A stretch of DNA of 61,242 bases from Myxococcales bacterium (GCA_003157775.1 PMKP01000334.1:1-61242); one strand, 5' to 3'; positions 2,534 to 45,221 are shown, counted from the stretch's first letter. A program made the numbers and translations. Notes: a model not told the origin generated them from the sequence alone.

Positions 2534-4057
2534 TCAGGGGCCAGCCGCCAACTGGCGTTCCAAGGCCAGTTCGGCGTCAAGGCTTTCTCGATCGCGGTTG
2601 ATGGTGGCCACCGCCAGGCATTTCCCAGCCGAAAGGTACTCGATGCGTGCGTCCAAACGATCGACAATCCCGTCGACGCGCACCTCATCCCAGCGCGAGG
2701 CGTGGCCCACGTACCTCAGCGCCACGTCGTAGTGTTGGCTCCAGAAGAATGGAACAATCGCGAGGCGCTTCTTCCGGCCGAGCATGTTCTGGGCTGCCAG
2801 CGCTCCCTGCCGCTGCGCCACCACCCAGTGCTCGATCCGCATGCGCTCACCTGACACGGCATCGGGGAAGCGCGCGACATCGCCGGCCGCAAAGATCCCA
2901 GGCACGCTGGTTTCGAGCTGGTGGTTGACCAGAATTCCTTGGTCCACCGCAATGCCTGCCTTGTCCGCCAGGTCAGTGGCGGGCCGCACGCCTATCCCCA
3001 GCACGACCAGATCCGCCGGGAGATCCTCGCCGTTGCTCAACGTAACGGTTCGATGACCGATGGCCATGGGCCGGCTGCCAAGACGGAACGTGACACCATG
3101 TTGTTCATGCTGGCGTCGCAGGAAATCGGCCACGGCCGGACCAAAGAGGCGCTCCATGGGACGAGCCTCGGGCGTCACCACAGTGACCTCGATTTCTCGC
3201 GCGCGAAGCGCGGCTGCCACCTCCAAACCGATGAAACTGGCACCCACCACTACGGCATTACGTGCGACGCGTGCGGCTTGCTGAATCCGCTTGCTGTCAG
3301 CCCATGTTCGCAGGGAAAACACCGAGGGACGATCCGCGCCAGGCACGTCCAGGTTGATAGGCTGCGCTCCGGTTGCCAGAAGGAGTGCGGCAAAAGGCAG
3401 CGAGCGGCCGTCGCTCAGTTCGACCAGGCGCGAAGGTACGTGGAGCTTCGCCACTGGAGTGTCGACGAGGAGGGTGATTTCCAACTGCTTGTAGTAATCG
3501 GCCGGTCGAAGTGGGATCCACTCATCGGGCGCTGTGCCGGCCAGATAGTCTTTGGAAAGGTTGGGGCGATCGTAGGGCTCCGATTGATCAGCGCTGACTA
3601 GGGTTATTGGCCCGGCATAGCCCTCCTGGCGCAGCGTCTCCGCGGCAGCATGGCCGGCGGCTCCACCGCCCACGACTACCACCGAGGCTGGGCCGTCGGC
3701 ACGCGCCGGTCGCGGCGCCGGCCGCTGCGCGCGCAGGTAGAGTCTTCCCTCCACCTGCTCGACGTTCCAGCAAGCCAGCGGGCTCAAGGCAGGCGAGCGG
3801 GTAACCTCACCAGTGGCGAGCGCGAAACGAGCGTGGTGCAAGGGACAACAGATCTGCCCCTTGGCGACGACTCCCTGAGCGAGCGCACCGCCATAGTGCG
3901 TGCACGAGGCGCCCACCGCGTATACCCGTGCATTTTCACGCACCAGTAGGACGGAATCGCCAGCCACCTTTCCGAAAAGCGGTTTCCCTTCAACCAGGTC
4001 AGCACTCGGAATCCCGAGCGACAGGTCGGGCGCAGTCTTGTCATCGGGCTCAGGCAT
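2534..4057 (-). CDS. Rieske [2Fe-2S] domain fused to an FAD/NAD(P)H pyridine-nucleotide-disulfide oxidoreductase (ferredoxin-reductase-like)
   Basis: Rieske ligands are CTHYGG...CCPLHHARF. They are followed by the dinucleotide fold VVVVGGGAAGHAAAETLRQEGY, a second fold VVVGASFIGLEVAAAL, and GIFAAGDVA. I prefer the start at ATG 4057 (MPEPDDK); the longest ORF starts at 4093. Confidence 0.8.
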   Translation of the reverse strand: MPEPDDKTAPDLSLGIPSADLVEGKPLFGKVAGDSVLLVRENARVYAVGASCTHYGGALAQGVVAKGQICCPLHHARFALATGEVTRSPALSPLACWNVEQVEGRLYLRAQRPAPRPARADGPASVVVVGGGAAGHAAAETLRQEGYAGPITLVSADQSEPYDRPNLSKDYLAGTAPDEWIPLRPADYYKQLEITLLVDTPVAKLHVPSRLVELSDGRSLPFAALLLATGAQPINLDVPGADRPSVFSLRTWADSKRIQQAARVARNAVVVGASFIGLEVAAALRAREIEVTVVTPEARPMERLFGPAVADFLRRQHEQHGVTFRLGSRPMAIGHRTVTLSNGEDLPADLVVLGIGVRPATDLADKAGIAVDQGILVNHQLETSVPGIFAAGDVARFPDAVSGERMRIEHWVVAQRQGALAAQNMLGRKKRLAIVPFFWSQHYDVALRYVGHASRWDEVRVDGIVDRLDARIEYLSAGKCLAVATINRDRESLDAELALERQLAAGP

Positions 4058-4154
4058 CAGCACACCCCCGCGTTTGGGGCATGCATACCACAAACCAACC
4101 CGAGGTGCCTGACGCCGGAGCGGAGGCCCGAAAGGCCGACGGAGCTGTCACCAG

Positions 4155-4640
4155 TCAGTTCTTGCCCTGAAAAGTGATGGGACTGAGCTCAACCGCCGAA
4201 CCTGCCATTTCGACACTGTCAGCCAACTCCAGCGCGAAGCTGTGGCGGCAATCGGGGACTCCCTCGGGCATGAACGCAAGACGAACCTGCTTGGTCTCCC
4301 CAGGAAGTACCGGGATGACCTTTGCTTGCCGGGGCGCTGCCGGATGCGCCGCCGGTATGTCGGTTTCCGCCAGTCGGATTTGCCCTTCTGCTACCTCGGC
4401 AACCTGGTCCGAGGAGTTGTTGACCTGCAGCTTCAGTTCGACGCCGGCTTGGTCTTCGTCGGTTGTGTCAGTGAGAGGATCGGCGCCTCGGTTCACGTAA
4501 CAGCGAACGCCTGCAACGCGAACCTCCACGCCTTGATTGGAGAGAGATGGGCCTGAGTTCATGTACGGCGCATGGTACCCACAACCCGCGGCAACAAGGA
4601 CAGCCGCAGCCCCCAACATCAGTGTGCTTCTCATGGTCAC
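4155..4640 (-). CDS. lipoprotein, unknown function
   Basis: Signal peptide with lipobox: MTMRSTLMLGAAAVLVAAGC. 161 aa. It sits between the hydroxylase and the Rieske-FAD gene on the same strand. Confidence 0.6.
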   Translation of the reverse strand: MTMRSTLMLGAAAVLVAAGCGYHAPYMNSGPSLSNQGVEVRVAGVRCYVNRGADPLTDTTDEDQAGVELKLQVNNSSDQVAEVAEGQIRLAETDIPAAHPAAPRQAKVIPVLPGETKQVRLAFMPEGVPDCRHSFALELADSVEMAGSAVELSPITFQGKN

Positions 4641-4827
4641 TTACCTCCCCGCCGGGGAGGCAAGGCCGCGACGGGAAAACCCCACGGCTGGCACCCCAGC
4701 GAATGCTCCCTAATACCCGGGAGCTGGTTCCGATGTTCCCACTACTAAGATGCGTGCGGGTCGCAATGGGAGCAAGTGGCGCCACGATGAATAGAAATTG
4801 GAAAAATCGCGCAGTTGCTGCGTCTAT

Positions 4828-6000
4828 TCATGCGAGAGCGTAGTCCTTGGTGTGTGGCGGGGTGAAACTTGAGCCAGCGAAGAGGACACGCAAGCGCGTG
4901 ACAATGCCGCGGTTGTGGCGCAGCTCGTAGCCAAGCTGGAGCAAGCCGGCGAGCGCGAGGCGGAGCGGATTCAGGTGCAGGCGTGGCGAACCCTGCAGTC
5001 CGATCGGGGGACGCGCCTCGGTGGGTGAGACATAAGTGCCGAACACGCGATCCCACAGCATGAACAGCGGGCCGCCCAGATTGACCAGCGAGTGGGCTGG
5101 CAGCGCCGAGTGGTGCATGTAGTGATAGGGCCCGTCACCGAAAAAGGCGCCGAGCGCGCGCAAAGGCCGGCTCCGCCAAAACGTTGCGTAGAGGGCTGTG
5201 TTGTGCGAGCCGATGAGGGGGATTTGGCCCAGCATGCGCAAGAGCAATGCTTCCGCTATCATCGCGTCCGAGTGAAAGAGCTTGGCGCATACGCCGACCC
5301 CAAGTTGAAAGGGCACGCTAAGGAGGAAGAACAGCGGGAAGGGGGCAAACACCGGTTGTGTAGTGGGGACGGTCAGATAGGGAGCCATATGGTGCGGGCG
5401 ATGCCAGAGCAGCCAAAACGGTCGCCAGGTGTGGCCCAAGCGGTGGAACCAATACTGGAAGAGATCGCCGAGCGCGACACTGACGAGGAGCGCAAGCGGG
5501 CTGGGCAAGTTCACCAGAGTCGGTACACGAGCCACCAGGGCGCTGCACCATTCGGTGTAGTGGCGAACGAGAGCGAAGCCAAAGAAGAACCCGCGCCCGG
5601 TCGCGGCGCTTGTGGCGCCGGCGAGTGTTAGGCCCACATAGAGCATGAGAGTCAAGCAGACGGTCAGGAGGAAGAAGGAGATGATTTGTTTTCGGGGTAG
5701 CGCTGGGGCGGGCGAGAAACCCCGATAGAGCATGACCCCGTTCCATGCGAGCACGAACCCTGAAAGGGGAAACATGACGGCGAGCCAGCCTGGCGACACG
5801 CCGGCAAGTTGACTTTCAAACCGTGTCAGGGCGAAGCCGGCTTCATCGACCAGCCCAGGGCCGAGCATTACGGTTTCATGCGCGAAGGCATCGACGACCA
5901 CCGTGACCGCAAAAGCGACGGCGAATACCGCGTAGCCGGCACGGAGCCATGGCTCCCACCGAGGCTGCGGTTCCGGAGGTTCCCAGGTGAAGAACTGCAT
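4828..6000 (-). CDS. fatty acid hydroxylase / sterol desaturase superfamily membrane di-iron enzyme
   Basis: 390 aa with multiple TM segments. His boxes are HRLGH, HRPHH and HYMHH at the family's usual spacing. Confidence 0.8.
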   Translation of the reverse strand: MQFFTWEPPEPQPRWEPWLRAGYAVFAVAFAVTVVVDAFAHETVMLGPGLVDEAGFALTRFESQLAGVSPGWLAVMFPLSGFVLAWNGVMLYRGFSPAPALPRKQIISFFLLTVCLTLMLYVGLTLAGATSAATGRGFFFGFALVRHYTEWCSALVARVPTLVNLPSPLALLVSVALGDLFQYWFHRLGHTWRPFWLLWHRPHHMAPYLTVPTTQPVFAPFPLFFLLSVPFQLGVGVCAKLFHSDAMIAEALLLRMLGQIPLIGSHNTALYATFWRSRPLRALGAFFGDGPYHYMHHSALPAHSLVNLGGPLFMLWDRVFGTYVSPTEARPPIGLQGSPRLHLNPLRLALAGLLQLGYELRHNRGIVTRLRVLFAGSSFTPPHTKDYALA

Positions 6001-6222
6001 TCTGGCGCTCGAAGGCTAGATCAGCCGGAGGATCTGCGCCATAGCACAACGCCACCCGCCGGTGATCGACGGCCGGGATTCGCCTGCCGCACTCCTCCTT
6101 TGCCGACTGATGTGTCGAGTTGTTGTTCGCGGGAATTGGATGCTGGATGGGCGCCAAACATGGCCGGTCGGCAACGCGAAACCGGCTTTCTTCGAACATT
6201 GATGACTCCGCGCTGACGCGCG

Positions 6223-8469
6223 TCACCCTGGGCGCACGCTGGACGATCTCCTACGCAACGACGAAAGCAACTCCACCAGCGTGTCCAGGCATGGCGGTTT
6301 GGCCAAGTGCCGGTCAAAGCCGGCCTCGGCCGCCCGCTGCAGATCCTCCGGCAAAGCGTACCCGCTTAGGGCTACTAGGAATATGTCTTTGAGCGCCCCA
6401 TCAGCCCGGAAGGCACGCGCGACCTCGTAACCGTCCATGCCGGGCAGCCCAATGTCGCAGAGTACGACCTCAGGACGGAACGCGCGCGCCTCGGTCAGAC
6501 CGCTGGGTCCGTTGTCGGCGACCTGGACCTGGTGGCCACAGAGTTCGAGCGCCTCACGCAGACTCTGGGCTGCGTCGGCCTGGTCCTCGATGACAAGCAC
6601 CCGGCGGGCTCGGGGTGAAAGATCGATGGGGGTCGGAGTTCGGACGTCGAGCGCGCTATCGAGTGGCAATCGTACGATGAATTCCGCGCCTTTGCCGATG
6701 CCCTGGCTGTGCGCGCTGATCTCTCCGCCGTGCAACTCGACCAGCCCCTTGGCCAACACCAGTCCCAGGCCGAGGCCGCCTTGACTGCGATCCATGGTGT
6801 GATCGGCCTGGGTGAAGGGCTGGAACAGGCGCGGCAGCAACTCAGGCGAAATGCCGACGCCGGTGTCAGTAACCCGGATGATGGCTCGCCTCGCCGCCTC
6901 ATCGACGGCGACGGATACCTGGGCGCGCCCGCCTTTGCCGGTGAACTTGGCCGCGTTCTGCAATAGGTTTCCCACCACCTGCGCCAGGCGTGTCCGGTCG
7001 GCGTTGACCGCAATACGCTCGGCCGGCAGGGCGGCCTCGAGGTGAACCTCGCCTTTCTCGAAAAGCGAACGGTGATCCTCGACGGTTCGCCGCACGAGAT
7101 CAGTCAGGTCCAGGGGCTCGCATTGCAGCCGGATCTTGTTCCTTGTGATGCGGGTCGCGTCTAGGAGATCGTCTACCAGATGGGTCAGGTGCCCGACCTG
7201 GCGATCGATGATGGCCTGGGCCCGGCGCGCCTGCTCGCCACCCGGGACCGCCCGATCCAGAATGAAAAGGCTGTTGCGTATCGGCGCGAGTGGGTTGCGC
7301 AGCTCATGAGAGAGCACGGCGAGAAACTCGTCCTTGAGTCGGTCAGAGTCGCGAAGCGCCTCCTGAGTTCGAATAAGATCAGTGATGTCGGTCCCGACCG
7401 TGACCGCTCCGATAGCCTGACCGCCCAACTGCAAGGGAGCGGACGAAAATGATACGACCATCTCCTGCCCGTCCGGCCGGGTGAGAACGAATCGCTCGCC
7501 CAGAACTCGCTCGCCCTTGAGCGCGCGGACTGTCGGCAGCTCCTCGCGCACCAGTGGACGCCCATCGAGCCGGCGGGAGGACAGACGTTTGGCCAGAGTC
7601 TCGATGTCAACCCCAAGCGGGTCGATGTCATAGAGCGCCCGCGCCGCAGAGTTGGCGCGCACCATCGATCCTGCGGCGTCGTACACCATGATCCCATGGG
7701 TCATCGCCGCAAACGCGGCCTCCAGCTCAGCCGCGTTGTGCCTGGCCGCCTGCTCGGCCCGCTCTCTTGCGGCAATGTGCTTGTCCAGCCCTCTGCCCCA
7801 CAACGTGAGACCCACGACACCCAGCAGCCAAACCAGTCCGTGGGCAATCGAGGTGCGCGCGACCTGCGGCCTCTCAAGGGACAGGATTGGCTCCATCGGC
7901 ACGGAGACGCTGATCCCGCCCCGAATGTCGCCTTCCTGGTAGCCCTGTTGAGCGTGGCATCTGAGACAGGGCTTCTCTATCAGGAAGGGTCGCATCAGGC
8001 GCAGGTCCTGCAGCCCATTCCTGCTTTCGAACGCGCTCACCTCCTTGACTCCATTTTCGAAGGAGGCAAGCGCAGCCGCCTCGAAGGCGTCGGGTGCGTT
8101 CTCGGGGCGCAATGGTTTGAGGCTGGTGAGGTGACCTCGGCTGCCGCGGCCCTGCTGCGCCAGTTGGTTCACCTGGCGGGCCATGTAGGCGGGATTGAGC
8201 AGGGTCAGAGACAGGCCGGAGGTCGTGGTGACATCCCGATTGGGGACGTTAAGATGGGGATTGGGGGCCGTGTGCTCCGACACCGGTACGTACACGCCGC
8301 CCTGCTGCGCGGCCCATCTGCGGTAGAGGACGTCGTTGTCGAAAGTGACCTGGGCGCTGATACGCGCGATCTCGATACTCTTTTCCCTCTGCTCGTGCAG
8401 GTTCCAAATAAGCGAAGCGGCGAGGCACCCTGTCCAGAGTGCCGCCATTAAGCGGGCCTGATGCCTCAT
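6223..8469 (-). CDS. hybrid sensor histidine kinase: DUF3365-like periplasmic domain with CXXCH, PAS, HisKA, HATPase, receiver
   Basis: The N-terminal anchor is followed by a DUF3365-like region containing CLRCH. Then come a PAS domain, H-box EFLAVLSHELRNPL, the N/G boxes (GNLLQNAAKFT, DTGVGI, GGLGLGL), and a receiver domain (VLVIEDQADAA...VLCDIGLPGMDG). I prefer the start at ATG 8469 (MRHQARLMAAL); the longest ORF starts at 8598. Confidence 0.8.
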   Translation of the reverse strand: MRHQARLMAALWTGCLAASLIWNLHEQREKSIEIARISAQVTFDNDVLYRRWAAQQGGVYVPVSEHTAPNPHLNVPNRDVTTTSGLSLTLLNPAYMARQVNQLAQQGRGSRGHLTSLKPLRPENAPDAFEAAALASFENGVKEVSAFESRNGLQDLRLMRPFLIEKPCLRCHAQQGYQEGDIRGGISVSVPMEPILSLERPQVARTSIAHGLVWLLGVVGLTLWGRGLDKHIAARERAEQAARHNAAELEAAFAAMTHGIMVYDAAGSMVRANSAARALYDIDPLGVDIETLAKRLSSRRLDGRPLVREELPTVRALKGERVLGERFVLTRPDGQEMVVSFSSAPLQLGGQAIGAVTVGTDITDLIRTQEALRDSDRLKDEFLAVLSHELRNPLAPIRNSLFILDRAVPGGEQARRAQAIIDRQVGHLTHLVDDLLDATRITRNKIRLQCEPLDLTDLVRRTVEDHRSLFEKGEVHLEAALPAERIAVNADRTRLAQVVGNLLQNAAKFTGKGGRAQVSVAVDEAARRAIIRVTDTGVGISPELLPRLFQPFTQADHTMDRSQGGLGLGLVLAKGLVELHGGEISAHSQGIGKGAEFIVRLPLDSALDVRTPTPIDLSPRARRVLVIEDQADAAQSLREALELCGHQVQVADNGPSGLTEARAFRPEVVLCDIGLPGMDGYEVARAFRADGALKDIFLVALSGYALPEDLQRAAEAGFDRHLAKPPCLDTLVELLSSLRRRSSSVRPG

Positions 8470-8571
8470 TCGGCGGTTGGATGCTGCGGCGTGGGCAGAT
8501 GTGCCAGCGGCCTTAGACTGTAACCGGGCTTGCTTAGCCAACCTGCGGCAGAAACAGGCTGATAAGCCAAG

Positions 8572-10965
8572 ATGGCGCATGGTAGACATGGCCGTCACGG
8601 AAACAAGTCCATGAGTCGTCAGCCGCGAAAACGCTCGCCCAGCCGCGAAACTACCCAGGGTGGATCGCGCGACATTGCGGAGCGCAAGCGAGCAGAGGCG
8701 GCATTGCGACGGAGCGAGGATTTGTTGTCGTTTTCACTCACGACGGCCCGCATCGGGTGCTGGGAGCTCGACTTGATGGACCACACGGCGCATCGGTCCC
8801 TCCAGCACGACCAGATCTTCGGCTATCAGGAGCTTCTGCCCGAGTGGACCTATGATATGTTCATCGCGCACGTGATCCCGGAGGATCGTGAAGCGGTAGA
8901 CGGGAAATTCCGCCAAGCGCTCGCCACTCAGTGCGACTGGAGCTTTGAATGCCGGATCTTGCGGCACGACGGGGCGACTCGCTGGATCTGGGCGGCGGGC
9001 CGCCATCGCGCCGATGAGAGCGGCCAGATTCGACGCATGGCCGGGATCGTTCAGGACATCACCGAGCGCAAGCAGGCGGAAGCGGCGCTGCGCGAGGCCC
9101 ATGGCAGGACCACCGCAATCCTGGCGAGTATCGCGGATGCCTTCTATTCGCTCGACGCCGAGTGGCGCTTCGTCGAGGTGAACCCGGCGGCCGAGCGGGC
9201 GCCCTTCGGGCGGCCTGCCAGCGAACTTATTGGCAAGGTCATCTGGGACATGTTCCCGAAGATCGTGGGCACGCGCGTCCACCGGCACTACCTCGATGCG
9301 GTAGGCAAGCGCAGCCACGAGCACTACGAGTCGCCGTCGCCGCTCAACGGCCGCTGGTACGAAGTGTTCATGTTCCCGCGCCCCGGCGGTCTCGACGTCT
9401 ATCTGCGCGACATCGACGACCGCAAGAAGGCAGAGCAGGCGTTGCGCGAGAGTGAGGAGCGTCTCAAGCTGGCGCAACTGATCGCCCATCTCGGTAGCTG
9501 GGAGCTCGATATCGTCGCCAACCGGCTCTCCTGGTCGGACGAGGTGTACCGAATCTTCGGTTTCGGGCCGCAGGAGTTCGGCGCCACCTACCAGGCATTT
9601 CTGGAGACTGTCCACCCTGAGGACCGAGCCGCGGTCGACAGCACCTATTCGGCCTCTCTGCGCGAAGGGCGAGACAGCTTCGAGATCGAGCACCGGATCA
9701 TTCGCAAGTCCATAGGCGAAATCCGCACGGTTCACGAGAAGTGTCAGCACGTGCGCGATCAGTCGGGAAGCGTCGCCCGATCGCTCGGGATGGTGCAGGA
9801 CATTACCGAGCGCAAGCAAGCCGAGGAGGCGCTACGCGCCGCCAACCTCCAGCTCGCCGAGGCCGATCAGCGCAAGAACGAGTTTCTGGCGGTTCTCTCG
9901 CATGAACTGCGCAACCCGCTCTCGCCCATTCGCAACAGCCTCTACATCCTCGATCGCACGGCCCCGGGCGGTGAGCAGGCCAAGCACGCCCTTGCGGTAA
10001 TCGGCCGGCAGGTCGGCCAGTTGGCGCGCCTGGTGGACGACTTGCTCGACGTCACGCGGGTCTCGCGCAACAAGATCCAGCTCCAACGCAGTACCCTTGA
10101 ACTGAATGATCTGGTTCGTCGCACGGTCGAGGACCATCACTCCTTGTTCGAGGAAAAGGGAATCGTGGTTGAAGCGACCTTCGCCCCAGATCGTTTGCCG
10201 GTCAAAGGCGACGTTAATCGCCTCGCTCAGATAGTTGGAAATCTCCTGCAAAACGCCGCCAAGTTCACCCCGGCCGGCGGTCGAGTCAGGGTCAGCACTG
10301 CGGTCGCCGCGTCGAGGCAGCGCGCTACCCTGCGGGTCACAGACACTGGGGTTGGGATTGAGCCGGCGATGCTCAGCCGGTTGTTCCAGCCCTTCATGCA
10401 GGCCGACGCGACCTTGGATCGCAGTAAGGGTGGCCTCGGACTTGGGCTGGCGCTGGTCAAGGGTCTGGTGGAGATGCATGGTGGCGAGGTCTGCGCGCAC
10501 AGCGACGGCCCGGGCAAGGGAGCGGAGTTCATGGTTGAGTTGCCGCTCGACGAGACGGCAGTCGCGGAGGCTAGCTCGAGGGCAGTCGGGACGGCGGGGA
10601 GGCACCGGCGCGTCCTAATCATCGAGGACAACCGAGACGCGGCTGATAGCCTGCGCGAGGTGCTGCAGTTCGGCGGGCACATCGTCGAGGTCGCCTACAA
10701 CGGTCCCGACGGGCTGCACCGGGCTCGAGACTTCAAGCCGGAGATCGTGCTTTGTGATATTGGCCTACCCGGCATGGATGGCTATGAGGTCGCGCGCGCC
10801 TTCCGGGCCGATGAGGCGCTGAAAGGTGTATTCCTGGTGGCTCTGAGCGGCTACGCCCTGCCCGATGACTTGCAGCGGGCGGGGGAGGCAGGATTCGAGC
10901 GGCACCTTGCCAAGCCGTCGAGTCTGGAGAAGCTGGAGGAACTTCTCGCGGATGTCCCTTCCTAG
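8572..10965 (+). CDS. hybrid sensor histidine kinase: three PAS domains, HisKA, HATPase, receiver
   Basis: Three repeats of the PAS linker DITERKQAE/DIDDRKKAE. H-box EFLAVLSHELRNPL, ATPase boxes, and C-terminal receiver VLIIEDNRDAADS...VLCDIGLPGMDG. An alternative start is at 8611. Confidence 0.85.
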   Translation: MAHGRHGRHGNKSMSRQPRKRSPSRETTQGGSRDIAERKRAEAALRRSEDLLSFSLTTARIGCWELDLMDHTAHRSLQHDQIFGYQELLPEWTYDMFIAHVIPEDREAVDGKFRQALATQCDWSFECRILRHDGATRWIWAAGRHRADESGQIRRMAGIVQDITERKQAEAALREAHGRTTAILASIADAFYSLDAEWRFVEVNPAAERAPFGRPASELIGKVIWDMFPKIVGTRVHRHYLDAVGKRSHEHYESPSPLNGRWYEVFMFPRPGGLDVYLRDIDDRKKAEQALRESEERLKLAQLIAHLGSWELDIVANRLSWSDEVYRIFGFGPQEFGATYQAFLETVHPEDRAAVDSTYSASLREGRDSFEIEHRIIRKSIGEIRTVHEKCQHVRDQSGSVARSLGMVQDITERKQAEEALRAANLQLAEADQRKNEFLAVLSHELRNPLSPIRNSLYILDRTAPGGEQAKHALAVIGRQVGQLARLVDDLLDVTRVSRNKIQLQRSTLELNDLVRRTVEDHHSLFEEKGIVVEATFAPDRLPVKGDVNRLAQIVGNLLQNAAKFTPAGGRVRVSTAVAASRQRATLRVTDTGVGIEPAMLSRLFQPFMQADATLDRSKGGLGLGLALVKGLVEMHGGEVCAHSDGPGKGAEFMVELPLDETAVAEASSRAVGTAGRHRRVLIIEDNRDAADSLREVLQFGGHIVEVAYNGPDGLHRARDFKPEIVLCDIGLPGMDGYEVARAFRADEALKGVFLVALSGYALPDDLQRAGEAGFERHLAKPSSLEKLEELLADVPS

Positions 10966-12496: not shown

Positions 12497-12607
12497 CTGG
12501 AACTGGCCGGTTGGTCACAGGCAAGGTCCTCCGCTGCCCTGTCTGTTGGATGCCCCGCTAGCTTGCAGGTCGCAGCGGGCCGGGACAATCGGAGGTCCGC
12601 GAGCAGG

Positions 12608-14035
12608 TCACCGCGTGGCGGCGGCGCGGGCTTTGCTGGGCGGCTCGGTGCAAGCCTCCCCCTTGAGCAGGCTCCGCCCGTGCTCTCCGACGTGCAGGGA
12701 ATCGTCCACTATCTCTTTCTTGTCCGGGAATTCGCGTTGCCAGACCGGGTCCATCACCTTCTTCAAGCTCACCGCGTATTCGTCCAGGCCGTCGGCGAGA
12801 ATGGTCTTGATCTTTTCCGCCCCTTCTTGCGACGGCGTGGGGTGAAACTTCTCCAGGGCGTCGCGCAGAATCTGCGGCCGATCGATGATGGGGCAGGGCC
12901 GATAGATGTTCTTTATTTCGCGGTTTCGCTTGCGAATGTACTTGAAGTAGTCGCTCGACAAGGCGGTCTTCAGCGACACGTCCTTGATGTTGTGCACGTG
13001 GAACTGATGGAACACGCAAGGCTCGACACCTCCCTGCGCATTGATGTGGAAATAGCGCTGCCCGGCTGACAAGCAGCCGCCCACCAGGGGCCCGTCGCAC
13101 CAGAAATCGGCAGCCACAATCGGCTTGTGTGCGCGGATTTCGCGGATGCGCTGCATGCGGTGCAAGCGCTGTTCGGGAGTGGGCATCAGGCTGAGGTCGG
13201 GATCGCGCCCGACCGGCATGTAGGAGAAGTACCAGCCGATCATGCACCCGCGCTCTACGTAGAAATCGATGAACTCGTCGGAGACAATGAGATCATTGTT
13301 CAGCCGCGTCGGCGTGCCTGAGAAGCCGAAGATCACGCCCGCCTGCTTGAGAGCAGCCATGCTGGCCAGGATCCGGTCCCACACTCCCGCGCCCCGGCGC
13401 GCGGTGGTCTCCTTCTCGAAACCCTCCACGCTGATGCACGGGATCACGTTGCCCAGCTTGGCCAATCGGGGTGCCAACTGGCGCTCGGCGATCAAAGTTC
13501 CATTGGTGTAGGTCATGAAGATCATGTCGCTGTGCCGTTCGCACAGCTCCAGGAAGTCCTCGCGGATGAACGGCTCGCCGCCGCTCACCACCACGAAGCG
13601 GATGCCCAGATCCTTAGCTTCGCCATAGACCCGGTCCAGGTCAGCCGTACTGAGCGCGTCCTTGCGATTGTAGTAAGCGGAATAGCAGCCCACGCACTTC
13701 AGGTTGCAGCGCATGGTTGGGCTGATGACCACCATGTGCGGGTAGTCGTGCAGCTCCTTGCGGTTGCGCTTGCGATAGGGCGTGCCGAGCAGGATCTGAT
13801 CGCCGACCAGGTTGTGCACCAGGCGCGAAAGGCAGTTTGGAGCGATCTCGCGGTGGCGTCGCTTGACCTCGCAGAACAACTTGAAGAGAAAATCCCCACT
13901 TATCGGCTCACTGAGGTCGCGCTTGGACTTGTCGATGCGGCGCCGAACCGAATCCTCGGATATCAGGCCGAGTCCCTTGGTGGCGGTGCTCAGGGCCAGA
14001 TGAACGAGAGCCTTCTTGGGATTCCAGCGGGTCAT
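12608..14035 (-). CDS. radical SAM enzyme with extra C-terminal Cys motif (SPASM/twitch-like), function unknown
   Basis: The CX3CX2C motif lies in MRCNLKCVGCYSAYY, followed by GGEPF. Further Cys occur in FWCDGPLVGGCLSAGQRYFHINAQGGVEPCVF. 475 aa, with an N-terminal extension of about 100 aa. RBS AGGAAGGAG precedes the ATG. Confidence 0.85.
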   Translation of the reverse strand: MTRWNPKKALVHLALSTATKGLGLISEDSVRRRIDKSKRDLSEPISGDFLFKLFCEVKRRHREIAPNCLSRLVHNLVGDQILLGTPYRKRNRKELHDYPHMVVISPTMRCNLKCVGCYSAYYNRKDALSTADLDRVYGEAKDLGIRFVVVSGGEPFIREDFLELCERHSDMIFMTYTNGTLIAERQLAPRLAKLGNVIPCISVEGFEKETTARRGAGVWDRILASMAALKQAGVIFGFSGTPTRLNNDLIVSDEFIDFYVERGCMIGWYFSYMPVGRDPDLSLMPTPEQRLHRMQRIREIRAHKPIVAADFWCDGPLVGGCLSAGQRYFHINAQGGVEPCVFHQFHVHNIKDVSLKTALSSDYFKYIRKRNREIKNIYRPCPIIDRPQILRDALEKFHPTPSQEGAEKIKTILADGLDEYAVSLKKVMDPVWQREFPDKKEIVDDSLHVGEHGRSLLKGEACTEPPSKARAAATR

Positions 14036-14077
14036 TGCAGCAACTCCTTCCTAGAAATGGTCTGGTGAGCGGACGTC

Positions 14078-14093
14078 TGCAAACCATGCACCA
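14078..14093 (-). promoter_or_regulatory. candidate sigma-54 (-24/-12) promoter of the radical SAM gene
   Basis: The minus strand reads TGGTGCATGGTTTGCA: GG and GC at the canonical 12-nt register, with TTGCA at -12. It ends 42 nt before the ATG at 14035. It is 15/16 identical to the element at 55213..55228. Confidence 0.5.
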
Positions 14094-14403
14094 AGACCGA
14101 CGCACGCGCAAACTTGGCCACGCCACGAAGAAAACTGGTGGAGATCCAACACCGACGGCGAAACTTCACCGGCCGAAAATGGACGCCTTCGGTACCAGGA
14201 GGCTATGCGCGAGTTTCCTCTTGAGGACGCTCGCAACGCGCCCCATTGCGCGGGCTCTTTCCCTCTCAACCTGCGCGTGAGCACCTTGTACCGAAACGCG
14301 CTGCGGCGCAGGCTAGATGACGATATGCGACTTGCGATCCGTTACCAACCGCCGCTGGTACTCTCCAAGACCTCCTCAAGCTTCTCCATGCTGGGGGGCT
14401 TGG

Positions 14404-14727
14404 CTAGGTGCTGGTCGAAGTGTTGGGCGGGATGGTGTAGACATTGTTGGGAAGCGGGCGTACCCCGTCCTCGGCCTGTTGCACTGGCATCTGCGTGTGC
14501 TTGCCGAGCAACTCCGCCAGCACACTGGGATGGTTGCGCTCGAGCTGTTGCACGACCACGAAGATGAGCCCGCTATCGGCTGATACGAGAGAAGAGAATC
14601 GTTCGAGGGCGTGGAGCGCTCCCGGTGAAACCCCAATCCCGACGAAGACCGGGCGTGCCCCAGAGCGCGCTTCGTCGTCAGAGTCTTCTCGTGAGATCGT
14701 ATTCTGCGACGCCATCGATCGCTTCAA
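14404..14727 (-). pseudogene. truncated, degenerate CheB-methylesterase-like N-terminal fragment
   Basis: The 107-aa ORF matches the start of CheB/CheR-fusion sensor proteins (VFVGIGVSPGALHALERF...FVVVQQLERNHPSVLAELL...VYTIPPN) and then stops. The usual VQHL His is replaced by Q. No remainder of the domain follows in any frame. Confidence 0.5.
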
Positions 14728-22673: not shown

Positions 22674-23945
22674 TCAAGTCCGGTGCGCGTGCGCGGGCTC
22701 CCTACGGTGGAGCTTGGAACGCGCATCGAGTTGGTAGGTGCGTCCCCTCCACGCCACTTCCGGCTTTGCAATCGCGCTTACCAGGATCAGCGGACCCAGC
22801 AACAAGATCGCGGCCGGGACCCAGGCGTGGCGCCATCCGATGGCCGCTCCACCCAGAACCCGGTGCAGACGGACCATACTGACGCTCACCGCGACCACGG
22901 TGGCGGCGGCGGGAATTGCAACGAGATGCTGGCCGTGGTGCAAGGCGAGCGCGGCCATGAGGAATCCCAGCCAGAACTCGGCGCCGCGCAGCCACACCGG
23001 CAGCTTGAACGACCAGGTCGGCAAGCCCGAGCGCGAAAAGATCAGCCAGCGGCGGAACATGCGGGCGAATTCCAGCAGTCCGAGTCCGCGAATCACCACG
23101 GGGAGCGTGTCCTGCGAGACGACGTTGCGATATCCGGCCGCCACCACATCCATCCCGATTCGCATGTCGTCGACCAACTCGCCGCGCACGCTCCTCAGGT
23201 CATGCAGAGTCTTGAGCATTTCGCGCCGAAAGACCATTAGCTGGCCCATTATGAAGGGCATTTCCCCGCTCTTGCGGACAGTGCCGGCCACCGCTGGGCC
23301 ATAGAGCCCGTTGAGCATGAGAGCGGCGCCCACGTCGCCCGCGGTTTGCGGCGCTTCCGTGGCCACGACTGGCACGAAAACGGATCCGGCTCGCTTGGTG
23401 GTGAGTAGCTTTTCCACTGCCATGCGCAGCGAATGGGGATGGGGGCGGGTATCCGAGTCTCCAAAAGCCACCAACTCGCCCGTAGCTTGGCCCAGGCCGG
23501 CAATCATGGCGTGAAGTTTTCCGGTCATGGTCGGGGGAGGCGATCCGGCCACCATTATCATGGCCGTGCCGCGCCGGCCGGCAGCCACGTGGGCGGCAAT
23601 GGCCTTGCGAACCGCCGCAAAAGCGGGATCGAGGTCGTCGTCAAAAACGAAGATGGTCTCAACCTCACCCGGGTAGTCGTTGTCCAGCGCCGCGGCCAGG
23701 TTCTTGTCCGCGTCCACGTCCAGTCCTCGCACGGGACGTATCACTGTGATGGAGGGCAGGCCAGCAAGGTTGCGCCCGTCAGTCCCTGCAAGCCTGAGGC
23801 TGCGGGCCTCGGCTCGCTGTTCGATGAGCGAACTGCGCAGTCGAAAGTGATCCCAAATCGTTGCAAAGAAAAGCAACAAACCCAACCCAATAGCCGCGTA
23901 TTCCACGCTCCTCCTCCTTGGACGGCTCCACCAGGACTCGCGCAC
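22674..23945 (-). CDS. membrane glycosyltransferase, GT2/GT21-like (ceramide glucosyltransferase / HpnI-like)
   Basis: N-terminal TM, ITVIRPVRGLD, a DxD-like FGDSDT, VFRREML and FRRW motifs, and C-terminal TM helices. Confidence 0.65.
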   Translation of the reverse strand: MRESWWSRPRRRSVEYAAIGLGLLLFFATIWDHFRLRSSLIEQRAEARSLRLAGTDGRNLAGLPSITVIRPVRGLDVDADKNLAAALDNDYPGEVETIFVFDDDLDPAFAAVRKAIAAHVAAGRRGTAMIMVAGSPPPTMTGKLHAMIAGLGQATGELVAFGDSDTRPHPHSLRMAVEKLLTTKRAGSVFVPVVATEAPQTAGDVGAALMLNGLYGPAVAGTVRKSGEMPFIMGQLMVFRREMLKTLHDLRSVRGELVDDMRIGMDVVAAGYRNVVSQDTLPVVIRGLGLLEFARMFRRWLIFSRSGLPTWSFKLPVWLRGAEFWLGFLMAALALHHGQHLVAIPAAATVVAVSVSMVRLHRVLGGAAIGWRHAWVPAAILLLGPLILVSAIAKPEVAWRGRTYQLDARSKLHRREPAHAHRT

Positions 23946-24140
23946 ATCCGTTCGCCGCCTAGCCAGAAGACAACGCGCCTAGATGAGCCATCTCTTCCTG
24001 TCTGGTTAGATGCTCGCTTCTTGCAAGGGTTCCTCCGAACATCTGGGCGGTCGCGGCACACGCGACAGGTATGCGGCATCAAACTGCGCAAATGTTGCCA
24101 AATTGGTGACACAGCCTGTCGATGGCGGGGAGGACCTACG

Positions 24141-25079
24141 ATGAATTCTCGACGCAAAAACGTTCCGGCGGCGGCGCTGCAAATTGGGGTTGCCGCGGCG
24201 CTTGCGCTGTTGCTCGCCGGAGTCACCGCCCGGGCACAAGAGGTCGCATCGCCGGCAAAGCCAGCCGAGGCGACCATCGAGCAGATCGACAACCCGCAGG
24301 TCTTCAATCTCTGGCTCAACCCGGAAAACTACCCGCGCATTGAACGCGCGGTCAACGTCATGAACGCCCGCACGACCCGGGCCCGCGCGCTCAATCTGCT
24401 AGTCGATCACCGCACCTTCCAGCCCTTCCAGACCAATGCCTTTCGGGACTGGGTCGGCTTCGATGCGGGTAGTCTCAAGATCGGGCTTGCCCTCCGCTAT
24501 GGCATCCTGGACAACCTGGAAGTGGGCGTGCAGCGCGTGAGTAACGGCGGCGACCAGTACGACACATACCAATTCGACGTCAAGTACTGGGCCCTGCACG
24601 CCGACCGCTACTTGGTTGACCTAGCGGCGCGAGCTGGGGCAACCTGGTATTCGGAAGCCACTAGGCCGGACTCGGCCGGGGGTTTCGCCCAGCTCATCGT
24701 CAGCCGCTCACTGCGCGAGCGCCTTTGGCTGTCGAGTGGACTCTACTATCACTCGAATGCGACCAACGAAAACCGCGTGGACCAGAATCTGCAGCGCCCC
24801 AGCGGTCAGGCCTATGCGCTGGCCATCCCGGTGGCGGTGGAGGTGCGGCTGCAGACCTTTCTGGCCTGGGACGCCGAGGCTTCCTTCAATGTGGCTGGCT
24901 ATCACGCGAAATACCCGGTCCTGTCGACGGCCTTCAAGATCATCACCAACCGTCACACCTTTGCATTGATCATGAGCAATTCGCAGTACATCGCCGCTGA
25001 CGGCGTGGTGGCCAACACCATTCGTGGCATCCACGACCTCATTGTGGGCTTCACCATTACGCGCGAATTCAATTTGTGA
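24141..25079 (+). CDS. secreted, probably outer-membrane beta-barrel-like protein, unknown function
   Basis: RBS GGGGAGGA, then ATG 24141. Signal peptide ...LLAGVTARAQE. Alternating-hydrophobic strands and a C-terminal ...GFTITREFNL. The longest ORF (from 23433) overlaps the divergent GT gene and is rejected. Confidence 0.5.
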   Translation: MNSRRKNVPAAALQIGVAAALALLLAGVTARAQEVASPAKPAEATIEQIDNPQVFNLWLNPENYPRIERAVNVMNARTTRARALNLLVDHRTFQPFQTNAFRDWVGFDAGSLKIGLALRYGILDNLEVGVQRVSNGGDQYDTYQFDVKYWALHADRYLVDLAARAGATWYSEATRPDSAGGFAQLIVSRSLRERLWLSSGLYYHSNATNENRVDQNLQRPSGQAYALAIPVAVEVRLQTFLAWDAEASFNVAGYHAKYPVLSTAFKIITNRHTFALIMSNSQYIAADGVVANTIRGIHDLIVGFTITREFNL

Positions 25080-25096
25080 TTGTCAAGGAGTTCATC

Positions 25097-25507
25097 ATGT
25101 CCAGTTCGACATTCGGCCGTCGCGGGTTCCTCTTGGGTTCGGGACTAGGTCTGGGTACACTGCTGGTCCTGCCTACGGTTTCGTCACGCGCCGAAGGTGG
25201 CAAGGTTGCCATCCCGCTGGCCAAGCTGGAGGTGCTGAAGTCCGTGGGCGGCTCAGTCGTTCTCAAGCTCAAGGGCAAGCTGGTTCTTCTCGTCCGCGAC
25301 AGCGCCACCAGCGTGCGCGCGTTGGACCCCGTCTGTACCCACCGGGAATGTTTGGTCGCATACAACCCGGGCGAGAACAAGCTCAAGTGTCCCTGTCACG
25401 GGTCGCAGTTCGACCTGAACGGTCGGGTCGTGCACGGGCCTGCGTCGCGGCCACTGGCGAACTACGCCGCGGAGCTGGCGGGCGAGCAGATCATCGTGAC
25501 CCTGTAG
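25097..25507 (+). CDS. Tat-exported Rieske [2Fe-2S] protein
   Basis: Twin-arginine signal STFGRRGFLLGSGLG. Rieske ligands CTHREC...CPCHGSQF. Starts 18 nt after the upstream stop. Confidence 0.8.
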   Translation: MSSSTFGRRGFLLGSGLGLGTLLVLPTVSSRAEGGKVAIPLAKLEVLKSVGGSVVLKLKGKLVLLVRDSATSVRALDPVCTHRECLVAYNPGENKLKCPCHGSQFDLNGRVVHGPASRPLANYAAELAGEQIIVTL

Positions 25508-25514
25508 GCAATCC

Positions 25515-26111
25515 ATGCGACGCGTGGCAATCTTTGTGCTTCTGGCTGGACTCGCGTCGTCGGCGCTCGCGTTGGTCTTGGCAACGGCTGTCTATGCGGT
25601 GGACTCGGCGCCTGCGGTGGAACAGATCGGCGATGTTCAGACCGTGGGCCCGGGGGAAGTTGAGAGCAAGCCGTCTGGCCTTTCCGATCTAGTCGGCCGG
25701 TTGCACCCGGCGCTGGTGCATTTCCCCATCGCGTGGCTGGTGGGCCTGGCACTGGTCGACTTCGTCGGCCTGGTATTGAAACGCGAGGAGTGGCAGCGCG
25801 TGGGTATCTTTGTTCTGGCCGGGACGGTGCTCAGCCTTCTGCCCACAGCCGCAACCGGCCTGTTGCGCGCGGCCCACATGCCCGCGGATCCGGCGGTACA
25901 CGCCCTGCTAGTCACGCACCGGACGCTCAACTTCGCGGTGGCCGGTCTGATTCTGGCCGCGTTTGCTTTGCGGCTCTTGCGCCGCAACCGTTTGCAGGGA
26001 TCGCGGCGCATCGTCTATCTGGCGCTGGTGTTCGCGGCCACCGGCCTGGTCTTGGTGGCGGCCGACTTTGGCGGCCGCATGGTGTACGGCCCTGACTATC
26101 TGCCCTGGTAG
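25515..26111 (+). CDS. DUF2231-like integral membrane protein
   Basis: LHPALVHFPIAWLV motif and four to five TM helices. Starts 8 nt after the Rieske stop. Confidence 0.65.
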   Translation: MRRVAIFVLLAGLASSALALVLATAVYAVDSAPAVEQIGDVQTVGPGEVESKPSGLSDLVGRLHPALVHFPIAWLVGLALVDFVGLVLKREEWQRVGIFVLAGTVLSLLPTAATGLLRAAHMPADPAVHALLVTHRTLNFAVAGLILAAFALRLLRRNRLQGSRRIVYLALVFAATGLVLVAADFGGRMVYGPDYLPW

Positions 26112-32044: not shown

Positions 32045-32060
32045 TGGCCTCGGTCTTGCA
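32045..32060 (+). promoter_or_regulatory. candidate sigma-54 (-24/-12) promoter upstream of the ManC-like/qNOR genes
   Basis: TGGCCTCGGTCTTGCA has TGGC at -24 and TTGCA at -12 in the correct register. It lies 53 nt upstream of ATG 32114. Single copy, so weaker than the pair at 14078 and 55213. Confidence 0.3.
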
Positions 32061-32113
32061 CAAGGGAATGGTCGCGCATCACATGCGCTGCATTTGAAAC
32101 AAGGAGGGTGGCC

Positions 32114-45036: not shown

Positions 45037-45221
45037 AGCGAATTGGCTAAGCAGAATCGGGGCCAGGCTTGCGGAATTGGGGACACACGCGGGAATTGCG
45101 CATTCCCTGTGCGACGGATCACGCAGGGCTGGCAAGCGATTTGTGGCGTCCGGCTTGCACTGCTATGGGAGCGTGCTTGGCAGCATTCATTCCCTTGCGA
45201 CTGAAATGCGAGGCGGGCACG

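Follow-up and report, generated by a model that had tools for sequence, protein, structure and literature searches.

Background

Myxobacteria encode dozens of sigma-54 activators, about 50 of them in Myxococcus xanthus, so that a sigma factor shared by two promoters says little about their co-regulation, which is decided by the activator. Squalene epoxidation needs O2, for which reason sterol synthesis is regarded as strictly dependent on oxygen, and the steranes of ancient rocks are interpreted partly on this basis. Prephenate is the oxygen donor of the U32 proteins UbiU/V, and the same role has been proposed for it with RlhA and TrhP (PMC10990095). A homologue of the GGR family has been described as a bacterial sterol C-24 reductase (bioRxiv 10.1101/2024.11.01.621555).

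We analysed a stretch of 61,242 nucleotides from a Myxococcales bacterium (GCA_003157775.1 PMKP01000334.1:1-61242), referred to here as the window. It stems from an uncultured population living in a fen, and the record nearest to it is the MAG fen_1144. It contains an operon coding for a U32-like protein and a cyclase and, 41 kb away, a stand-alone radical SAM gene (rSAM), each preceded by a -24/-12 element. The original prediction placed the two transcription units in one sigma-54 regulon on the strength of the likeness of these elements. Positions of the features discussed below are collected in Table 1.

Table 1. Features of the window, with their positions and the observations on which each assignment is based
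Feature	Position	Strand	Remarks
Rieske-FAD reductase fusion	2534-4093	-	within window 2534-8598
FA_hydroxylase-family protein	4828-6000	-	within window 2534-8598
Tll0287-like/PAS_7 hybrid histidine kinase	6223-8598	-	Pfam; orthologues of 87-88% identity 0.5-6 kb downstream of rSAM in L004-L007, L089 and L093
Radical SAM/SPASM protein, 475 aa, monocistronic	12608-14035	-	Pfam Radical_SAM 68.5 bits, SPASM 28 bits
rSAM core promoter, sigma-54 -24/-12 type, TGGTGCATGGTTTGCA	14078-14093	-	GG to GC 10 nt; conserved in two sister MAGs
Conserved upstream block moving with the rSAM gene	14094-14196	-	aligned in relatives; without CGTGCGATYYYGCAC-like site
Second copy of the predicted activator site	48083-48124	+	CGTGCGATTCTGCAC at 48094-48108, flanked by inverted repeat; invariant in five relatives
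Third sigma-54 -24/-12 promoter, AGGTGCGTTTCTTGCT	48237-48252	+	about 130 bp downstream of the site; invariant in alignment, 6/6
DUF116/HMG-CoA synthase/thiolase/DUF35 operon	48267-51878	+	first start codon uncertain; syntenic in relatives
Oxidosqualene cyclase (predicted), about 664 aa	51896-53890	-	GTG start overlaps U32 stop codon (GTGA)
Divergent U32-family Fe-S protein (predicted), 427 aa	53887-55170	-	Pfam PF01136, 31.3 bits (GA 22.4)
Core promoter of U32-like/oxidosqualene cyclase operon, sigma-54 -24/-12 type, TGGTTCATGGTTTGCA	55213-55228	-	TGG and TTGCA invariant
Tandem palindromic upstream activator site (predicted)	55306-55337		GTGCGATTTCGCAC at 55324-55337, GTGCTTTTGCAC at 55306-55317
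GAF/PAS sensor histidine kinase, divergent from U32 operon	55396-57252	+	Pfam; start codon inferred from alignment
NtrC/AtoC-type sigma-54 activator	57249-58640	+	receiver, AAA+ with GAFTGA, HTH_8 (Pfam, NCBIfam)

Two closely similar core promoters

The minus strand reads TGGTGCATGGTTTGCA at 14093-14078 and TGGTTCATGGTTTGCA at 55228-55213. Re-reading the window, we confirmed that the two 16-mers agree at 15 of 16 positions, that the next two bases (GA) match as well, and that exactly 42 nt separate each element from its ATG (at 14035 and 55170, respectively), which places both at -58. Matches to the 16-mer at two or fewer mismatches number only these two in the window, compared with 0.06 expected from shuffles. 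The claim that there is no further copy therefore holds for the 16-mer; what it missed is the third sigma-54 promoter of Table 1, overlooked because its start reads AGG instead of TGG.

All three elements show GG-N10-GC together with TTGCW, in agreement with the consensus TGGCAC-N5-TTGCW except for the AGG of the third. The assignment of the two 16-mers to the -24/-12 sigma-54 type is credible: the GG/GC spacing is as it should be, strong start sites follow just downstream, and both elements are conserved in orthologous loci. For the U32 operon, all 13 of the 13 aligned orthologous upstream regions keep the TGG and the TTGCA, with drift in spacer and leader. The similarity of the rSAM and U32 promoters stops after about 18 nt, and we therefore see in them not a duplicated segment of DNA but two look-alike core promoters. 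The 8-mer CACCAGAC, reported from both leaders, is indeed present in both, but at different offsets (leader nucleotides 11-18 and 20-27), and it is not conserved in the sister genomes, which have CACGAGAC in the U32 leaders and, in fen_1144, CACCAAAT in the rSAM leader; we reject it as a shared leader motif and treat it as a chance 8-mer. A 9-mer found near both promoters, GCGCGTGCG, was weighed as a possible degenerate activator site and likewise rejected, since neither L088 nor L089 conserves it.

Might the element before rSAM be a chance resemblance to a sigma-54 promoter, devoid of promoter function? Patterns of the form TGG-N8-TTGCW are certainly more common in the window than expected (10 versus about 3.7), although most of them lie within genes. 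The rSAM element, in contrast, is intergenic, and the ATG that follows 42 nt after it is equipped with a GGAGG ribosome-binding site. The element is kept in the two closest MAGs despite their rearranged flanks, as TGGTCCATGGCTTGCA at -58 in fen_1144 and as TGGCCCATGTCTTGCA at -136 in fen_1125, and it has equivalents before distant homologues: at 47-49% identity, four of these (three in Bdellovibrionales MAGs, L094-L096, and one in L100, a metagenome contig without taxonomic assignment) have TGGCAY-N5-TTGCT between -57 and -66. No sigma-70-like promoter was found between 12000 and 14800 as an alternative. A chance resemblance is thus very improbable, and the alignments support both 16-mers as genuine core promoters, with predicted dependence on sigma-54 (RpoN).

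Several other elements in the window deserve mention. Two intergenic TGG-N8-TTGCA elements, both without the activator site described below, are TGGCCTCGGTCTTGCA at 32045-32060 (+), 47 nt before the gene at 32108, and TGGCGTCCGGCTTGCA at 45144-45159 (+), 150 nt before an aldo-keto reductase/ferredoxin gene. A weak GG-N10-GC element, CGGGTGGCGTTGTGCT at 6043-6058 (-), lies exactly 42 nt before the ATG of the FA_hydroxylase gene, which is probably a coincidence. An imperfect palindrome centred on GACGTC (TGGTTTGCAGAC / GTCCGCTCACCA, window 14063-14086) extends over the -12 region of the rSAM promoter and the beginning of its leader. A scan of a public metagenome collection with TGGTKCATGGTTTGCAGA gave 82 matches, which is chance level, and 0 related to the window; the source contig is apparently absent from that collection.

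A predicted activator site shared with the HMG-CoA synthase operon

Divergent from the U32 operon are genes for a GAF/PAS sensor histidine kinase and an NtrC/AtoC-type activator; no other sigma-54 activator was found among the annotated genes of the window, which does not contain rpoN either. The synteny of the kinase with the U32 operon holds in L001-L022 and in L073. All close relatives have, after the kinase and activator, a gene for a DUF3419 protein (58637-59863, + strand in the window), which may be the third gene of a kinase-activator operon.

At 85-105 bp upstream of the -24 element of the U32 promoter lie two palindromes in tandem, which form the invariant core of the alignment of U32 upstream regions (CGTGCGATTTCGCAC, six bases, then GTGCTTCTGCAC). 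This is the location expected for the site of an NtrC-type activator. We propose that the divergently encoded kinase and activator switch on the U32 promoter, and that the protein binding to the palindromes GTGCGATTTCGCAC and GTGCTTTTGCAC, about 100 bp upstream, is presumably this activator. The promoter at 55228-55213 would then drive the translationally coupled operon of the U32-like, predicted Fe-S protein and the oxidosqualene cyclase.

The exact site CGTGCGATYYYGCAC occurs in the window only at 55324 and 48094. The sole further match at two or fewer mismatches, at 56326, is within the kinase gene, and there is none near rSAM. The copy at 48094 is followed by the third sigma-54 promoter and by the DUF116/HMG-CoA synthase/thiolase/DUF35 operon, which is convergent with the U32-cyclase operon and which we take to be an archaeal-type entry to the mevalonate pathway. 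An arrangement with CGTGCGATYYYGCAC 60-190 bp upstream of a -24/-12 element is accordingly seen for the U32-oxidosqualene cyclase and HMG-CoA synthase operons, and not for the rSAM promoter. The same activator site and the third promoter would control the HMG-CoA synthase operon, and it is this operon, rather than rSAM, that is the predicted partner of the U32 operon inside the window.

The activator site was found 48 times in 80 U32 loci, against 1-6 times in Markov shuffles, and 0 times in 152 kb of rSAM loci. In distant Myxococcota it is followed within 60-190 bp by a strong TGGCA-N6-TTGC element and stands before FPP synthase, IDI2, squalene synthase and HMG-CoA synthase genes and before an operon in which U32 is combined with a bifunctional DAHP synthase/chorismate mutase gene (CM-DAHPS). 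Because the same site precedes all these genes, the regulon would reach from isoprenoids to sterols; the whole pathway from mevalonate to sterols appears to be served by a sigma-54/two-component regulon.

The window has about 22 kb (26112-48084) without counterpart in the sister MAG fen_1144, in which the DUF116 operon directly adjoins the homologue of 22676-26111. Genes for qNOR, pyruvate dehydrogenase E1/E2, transaldolase and Ser/Thr kinases are found in this additional DNA, the presence of which explains why the rSAM and U32 promoters are 41 kb apart in the window and 19 kb apart in fen_1144.

The radical SAM gene and its own upstream block

Both domains of the rSAM protein score above their gathering thresholds, and the CX3CX2C motif is found at C110/C114/C117. 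There is no NCBIfam equivalog for the protein (the best match, NirJ2, reaches 90 bits against a cut-off of 500), and the best PDB match is SuiB (5V1Q). We considered and rejected a relationship with tetraether or other lipid synthases, to which no PDB match was obtained, and the presence of a RiPP precursor peptide, since no conserved small ORF was found beside the gene. The distant homologues have no conserved partner gene nearby and are orphans in unrelated contexts. Two B12-binding radical SAM genes were encountered in other loci, one about 6 kb from the U32-cyclase operon of L027 (L027:17683-19182) and one adjoining a 55% rSAM homologue (L098:5405-6793); both belong to a radical SAM class other than that of the window gene.

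The homology between the window and fen_1144 covers 12554-14196, that is, the rSAM gene and the 161 nt upstream of it, although the flanking genes are rearranged: glgC is upstream of rSAM in fen_1144 and downstream of it in the window, at a distance of 390 nt. Reading the upstream block as coding sequence, either as a plus-strand 81-aa ORF or as a CheB remnant, is argued against by indels of 1 and 22 nt between relatives. The rSAM gene thus moves with its own 160-nt block, which is without the activator site, and therefore presumably responds to a different activator, whose putative site is probably held by the part at 14094-14196. No activator gene was found near rSAM. Further upstream, a CheB methylesterase fragment (14404-14727, - strand) covers only 76 of 174 profile positions and is terminated by a stop codon; lying between a 914-aa hybrid kinase and the rSAM promoter, it is probably what remains of a gene.

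From these observations, we consider it likely that the window holds two genuine sigma-54 core promoters that belong to different activator circuits, each, we infer, with an activator of its own. The promoter at 14093-14078 would drive the stand-alone radical SAM/SPASM gene, and the 15/16 identity would reflect the shared sigma-54 consensus, a flavour of the lineage (TGG-Y-N-C-A...TTGCA) and, at the four or five spacer positions that are free, chance.

Several features count against separate circuits and in favour of one activator for the rSAM gene and the U32-cyclase operon, as a dispersed functional unit within a low-oxygen programme. The spacer bases CATGGT, present in both promoters, exceed what the sigma-54 consensus needs, and both promoters are at -58, with equal spacing to the ATG, in two genomes. 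The similarity is also partly kept in the sister genomes (13/16 between the two promoters of fen_1144, 12/16 in fen_1125), and enzymes of both types are characteristic of anaerobic chemistry (PMC10990095 for U32). As for the co-occurrence of orthologues, a close rSAM orthologue is present in six GTDB MAGs, and four of these do have U32; however, the co-occurrence stays within a single narrow clade, and we attribute it to shared ancestry. Against a common activator stands the absence of its site, near rSAM in the window as well as from every rSAM locus. We stress that this absence is no proof, as distant or degenerate sites can serve activators. In 83 loci, moreover, the rSAM gene was never clustered with U32 or even within 10 kb of it, its distant homologues have sigma-54 promoters of their own, the promoter block is present in three of six close orthologues and missing in the other three, and CACCAGAC is not conserved. 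Neither the single regulon nor the dispersed unit of U32, radical SAM and cyclase genes is supported by these results, and we regard control by one activator as improbable.

A somewhat better, if still rather unlikely, alternative is that rSAM forms, with the Tll0287-like hybrid kinase, the FA_hydroxylase-family di-iron enzyme and the Rieske/FAD reductase, a separate module that responds to oxygen or redox state. Tll0287 is a haem-binding PAS-like protein. Its relative here is the only recurrent neighbour of rSAM, an orthologue being found no more than 6 kb from rSAM in the window and in L004-L007, L089 and L093, and it is possible, judging by gene order, that the kinase is part of the control of rSAM. 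All members of the proposed module are co-oriented in fen_1144, in the order glgC, rSAM, kinase, FA_hydroxylase, Rieske-reductase, and the module could pair an O2-dependent with an O2-independent isoenzyme. On the other hand, the case consists of synteny within one clade, the more distant homologues having unrelated neighbours; neither an activator nor an Hpt protein was identified for the module, and the FA_hydroxylase-family protein has no NCBIfam match. The two-circuit reading, in which the activator of rSAM is distinct from that of the U32 operon, is the one that we retain.

A U32-like protein coupled to an oxidosqualene cyclase

The PF01136 match of the U32-like protein is partial, covering profile positions 3-67 of 233 (about 65 residues). 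The fold assignment is strengthened by a PDB profile search, in which 5D88 was matched with E=2.9e-7, and by an AlphaFold2 model (pLDDT 80) whose best Foldseek match is again 5D88 (E=6e-8, TMt 0.67). Nine cysteines, putative ligands of a 4Fe-4S cluster, are invariant (7, 181, 185, 211, 215, 359, 364, 367 and 370); they include C181-X3-C185-X25-C211-X3-C215 and an extra C-terminal CX4CX2CX2C. At E<=1e-5 the protein has no NCBIfam match and hence no UbiU/UbiV/RlhA/TrhP equivalog. Homologues of 60-97% identity were found in 80 species-level MAGs from Myxococcota, Spirochaetota, Fibrobacterota and Bacteroidota; no isolate genome was among the 80 loci returned, the carriers all being uncultured MAGs.

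The protein encoded next scores 764 bits with the 2,3-oxidosqualene cyclase model TIGR03463 (cut-off 851), 614 bits with TIGR01787 (cut-off 323) and 262 bits with the hopene cyclase model, and it contains GWPITDCTAEGL with the DCTAE motif. DCTAE is the signature of oxidosqualene cyclases, while squalene-hopene cyclases have DxDD. By these marks the cyclase of the original prediction is an oxidosqualene cyclase, predicted to be translationally coupled to the U32 protein. The 4-nt overlap of the two genes is also called by gene callers in L001, and in most of the 80 loci the cyclase comes directly after U32. A GGR-family flavoprotein gene lies beside U32 in 13 loci, and it is between U32 and the cyclase where the cyclase is adjacent.

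A possible link to prephenate and the missing epoxidation step

In 44 of about 83 loci, U32 is immediately preceded by a co-oriented CM-DAHPS gene (NF009239, 500 bits). Prephenate is the product of chorismate mutase. Examples are found within L023-L087 (L044:8910-10004, L024:3393-4616), and the gene occurs upstream of U32 even where no cyclase is adjacent; in the clade of the window itself, none was found at up to 10 kb from U32. The activator gene of L027 has a dehydroquinate synthase gene as its neighbour. That the U32 family is tied to O2-independent hydroxylation is borne out by the literature, in which the reaction is prephenate-dependent (PMC10990095), and is supported by the CM-DAHPS gene upstream of U32 in the 44 loci. 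The low-oxygen idea is plausible for U32, on family grounds.

The most complete cluster, of 15.7 kb, is that at L044:435-15733. It codes for HMG-CoA synthase and reductase, mevalonate kinase, a second GHMP kinase, diphosphomevalonate decarboxylase, IDI2, FPP synthase, two SQS_PSY proteins and the cyclase, the remaining genes being CM-DAHPS, U32 and a GGR-like gene. No gene of the squalene epoxidase (SE) family is present in it, and only four of the 83 loci (L017, L019, L020 and L079) have an SE-family gene at 10 kb or less from U32. The step without an enzyme in the cluster is therefore squalene epoxidation, which makes the U32 protein a candidate for an O2-independent squalene oxygenase. We tentatively propose, at rather less than even odds, that the U32-like protein acts as a squalene oxygenase (epoxidase) that depends on prephenate and not on O2, and that it would feed the coupled oxidosqualene cyclase. 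In our search of the literature, we found no paper tying U32 to squalene, oxidosqualene cyclase or sterols.

Other assignments have to be weighed here. The squalene epoxidase may be encoded elsewhere in the genome, and SE does coexist with U32 in some genomes. For canonical squalene monooxygenase, the motif matches listed and the best 80 of 274 profile matches overlap with the U32-bearing genomes in at least four assemblies, in scans that have no power for a divergent myxobacterial SE such as that of L019, which lacks the motifs used. The L019 gene (PF08491; L019:16792-18231, also in L017 and L020) lies beside the squalene synthase gene and the HMG-CoA synthase operon and reads SHPITAAGMTV, without the canonical NMRHPLTGGGM. 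Its neighbours have -24/-12 elements; for the gene itself none was found. Alternatively, the GGR-like flavoprotein could itself be the oxygenase, or U32 could act on the sterol product instead of on squalene.

Significance

In our opinion, the main value of the locus lies in the pairing of U32 with an oxidosqualene cyclase and in what appears to be its sigma-54 sterol-pathway regulon. A U32/prephenate enzyme conserved beside oxidosqualene cyclases in bacteria of anoxic habitats would be a concrete and clonable candidate for an oxygen-free route. If the proposal is true, uncultured Myxococcota, Spirochaetota and Fibrobacterota could form sterols of the lanosterol or cycloartenol type without molecular oxygen, sterol synthesis would be under a sigma-54 two-component switch, and U32 chemistry would be widened from aromatic rings to isoprenoid alkenes. 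The locus also illustrates that, with a sigma factor that serves many activators, a regulon is defined by the activator site and not by core promoters that are almost identical.

Comparison with known systems

The predicted regulatory circuit resembles the two-component sigma-54 regulons of the NtrC/AtoC type, such as AtoSC-atoDAEB, in its combination of a histidine kinase with an activator built of receiver, AAA+ (GAFTGA) and HTH_8 domains, and in palindromic sites 85-140 bp upstream of -24/-12 promoters. It differs from AtoSC-atoDAEB in its targets, which would be genes of isoprenoid and sterol biosynthesis, and in its sensor, which has GAF and PAS domains. The rSAM protein shares CX3CX2C and a SPASM domain with the SPASM/twitch radical SAM enzymes SuiB, NirJ/AhbD and PqqE; however, it scores far below the family cut-offs, has an N-terminal domain of about 100 residues, and is encoded without a conserved precursor peptide or partner gene.

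With UbiU/UbiV, RlhA and TrhP (PMC10990095, PMC6599085, PMC5727448), the U32-like protein of the window has in common the predicted U32 TIM-barrel fold and invariant cysteine clusters, which in the window protein may be suited to Fe-S binding. The spacing of its cysteines is different, the C-terminal CX4CX2CX2C is additional, and no equivalog is matched. Its partner is an oxidosqualene cyclase rather than enzymes acting on quinones or RNA, and its substrate would be an alkene or a sterol rather than an aromatic ring.

Bacterial sterol clusters have been described from Methylococcales, Bacteroidota and cultured myxobacteria, and in these a squalene monooxygenase gene adjoins that of the oxidosqualene cyclase (PMC4919349, PMC10202945). 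The U32 loci are like them in having a DCTAE cyclase together with mevalonate, FPP and squalene synthase genes, and some also have a GGR-family gene resembling the Bsr C-24 reductase (bioRxiv 10.1101/2024.11.01.621555). What sets the U32 loci apart is the slot beside the cyclase, which is occupied by the U32 protein.
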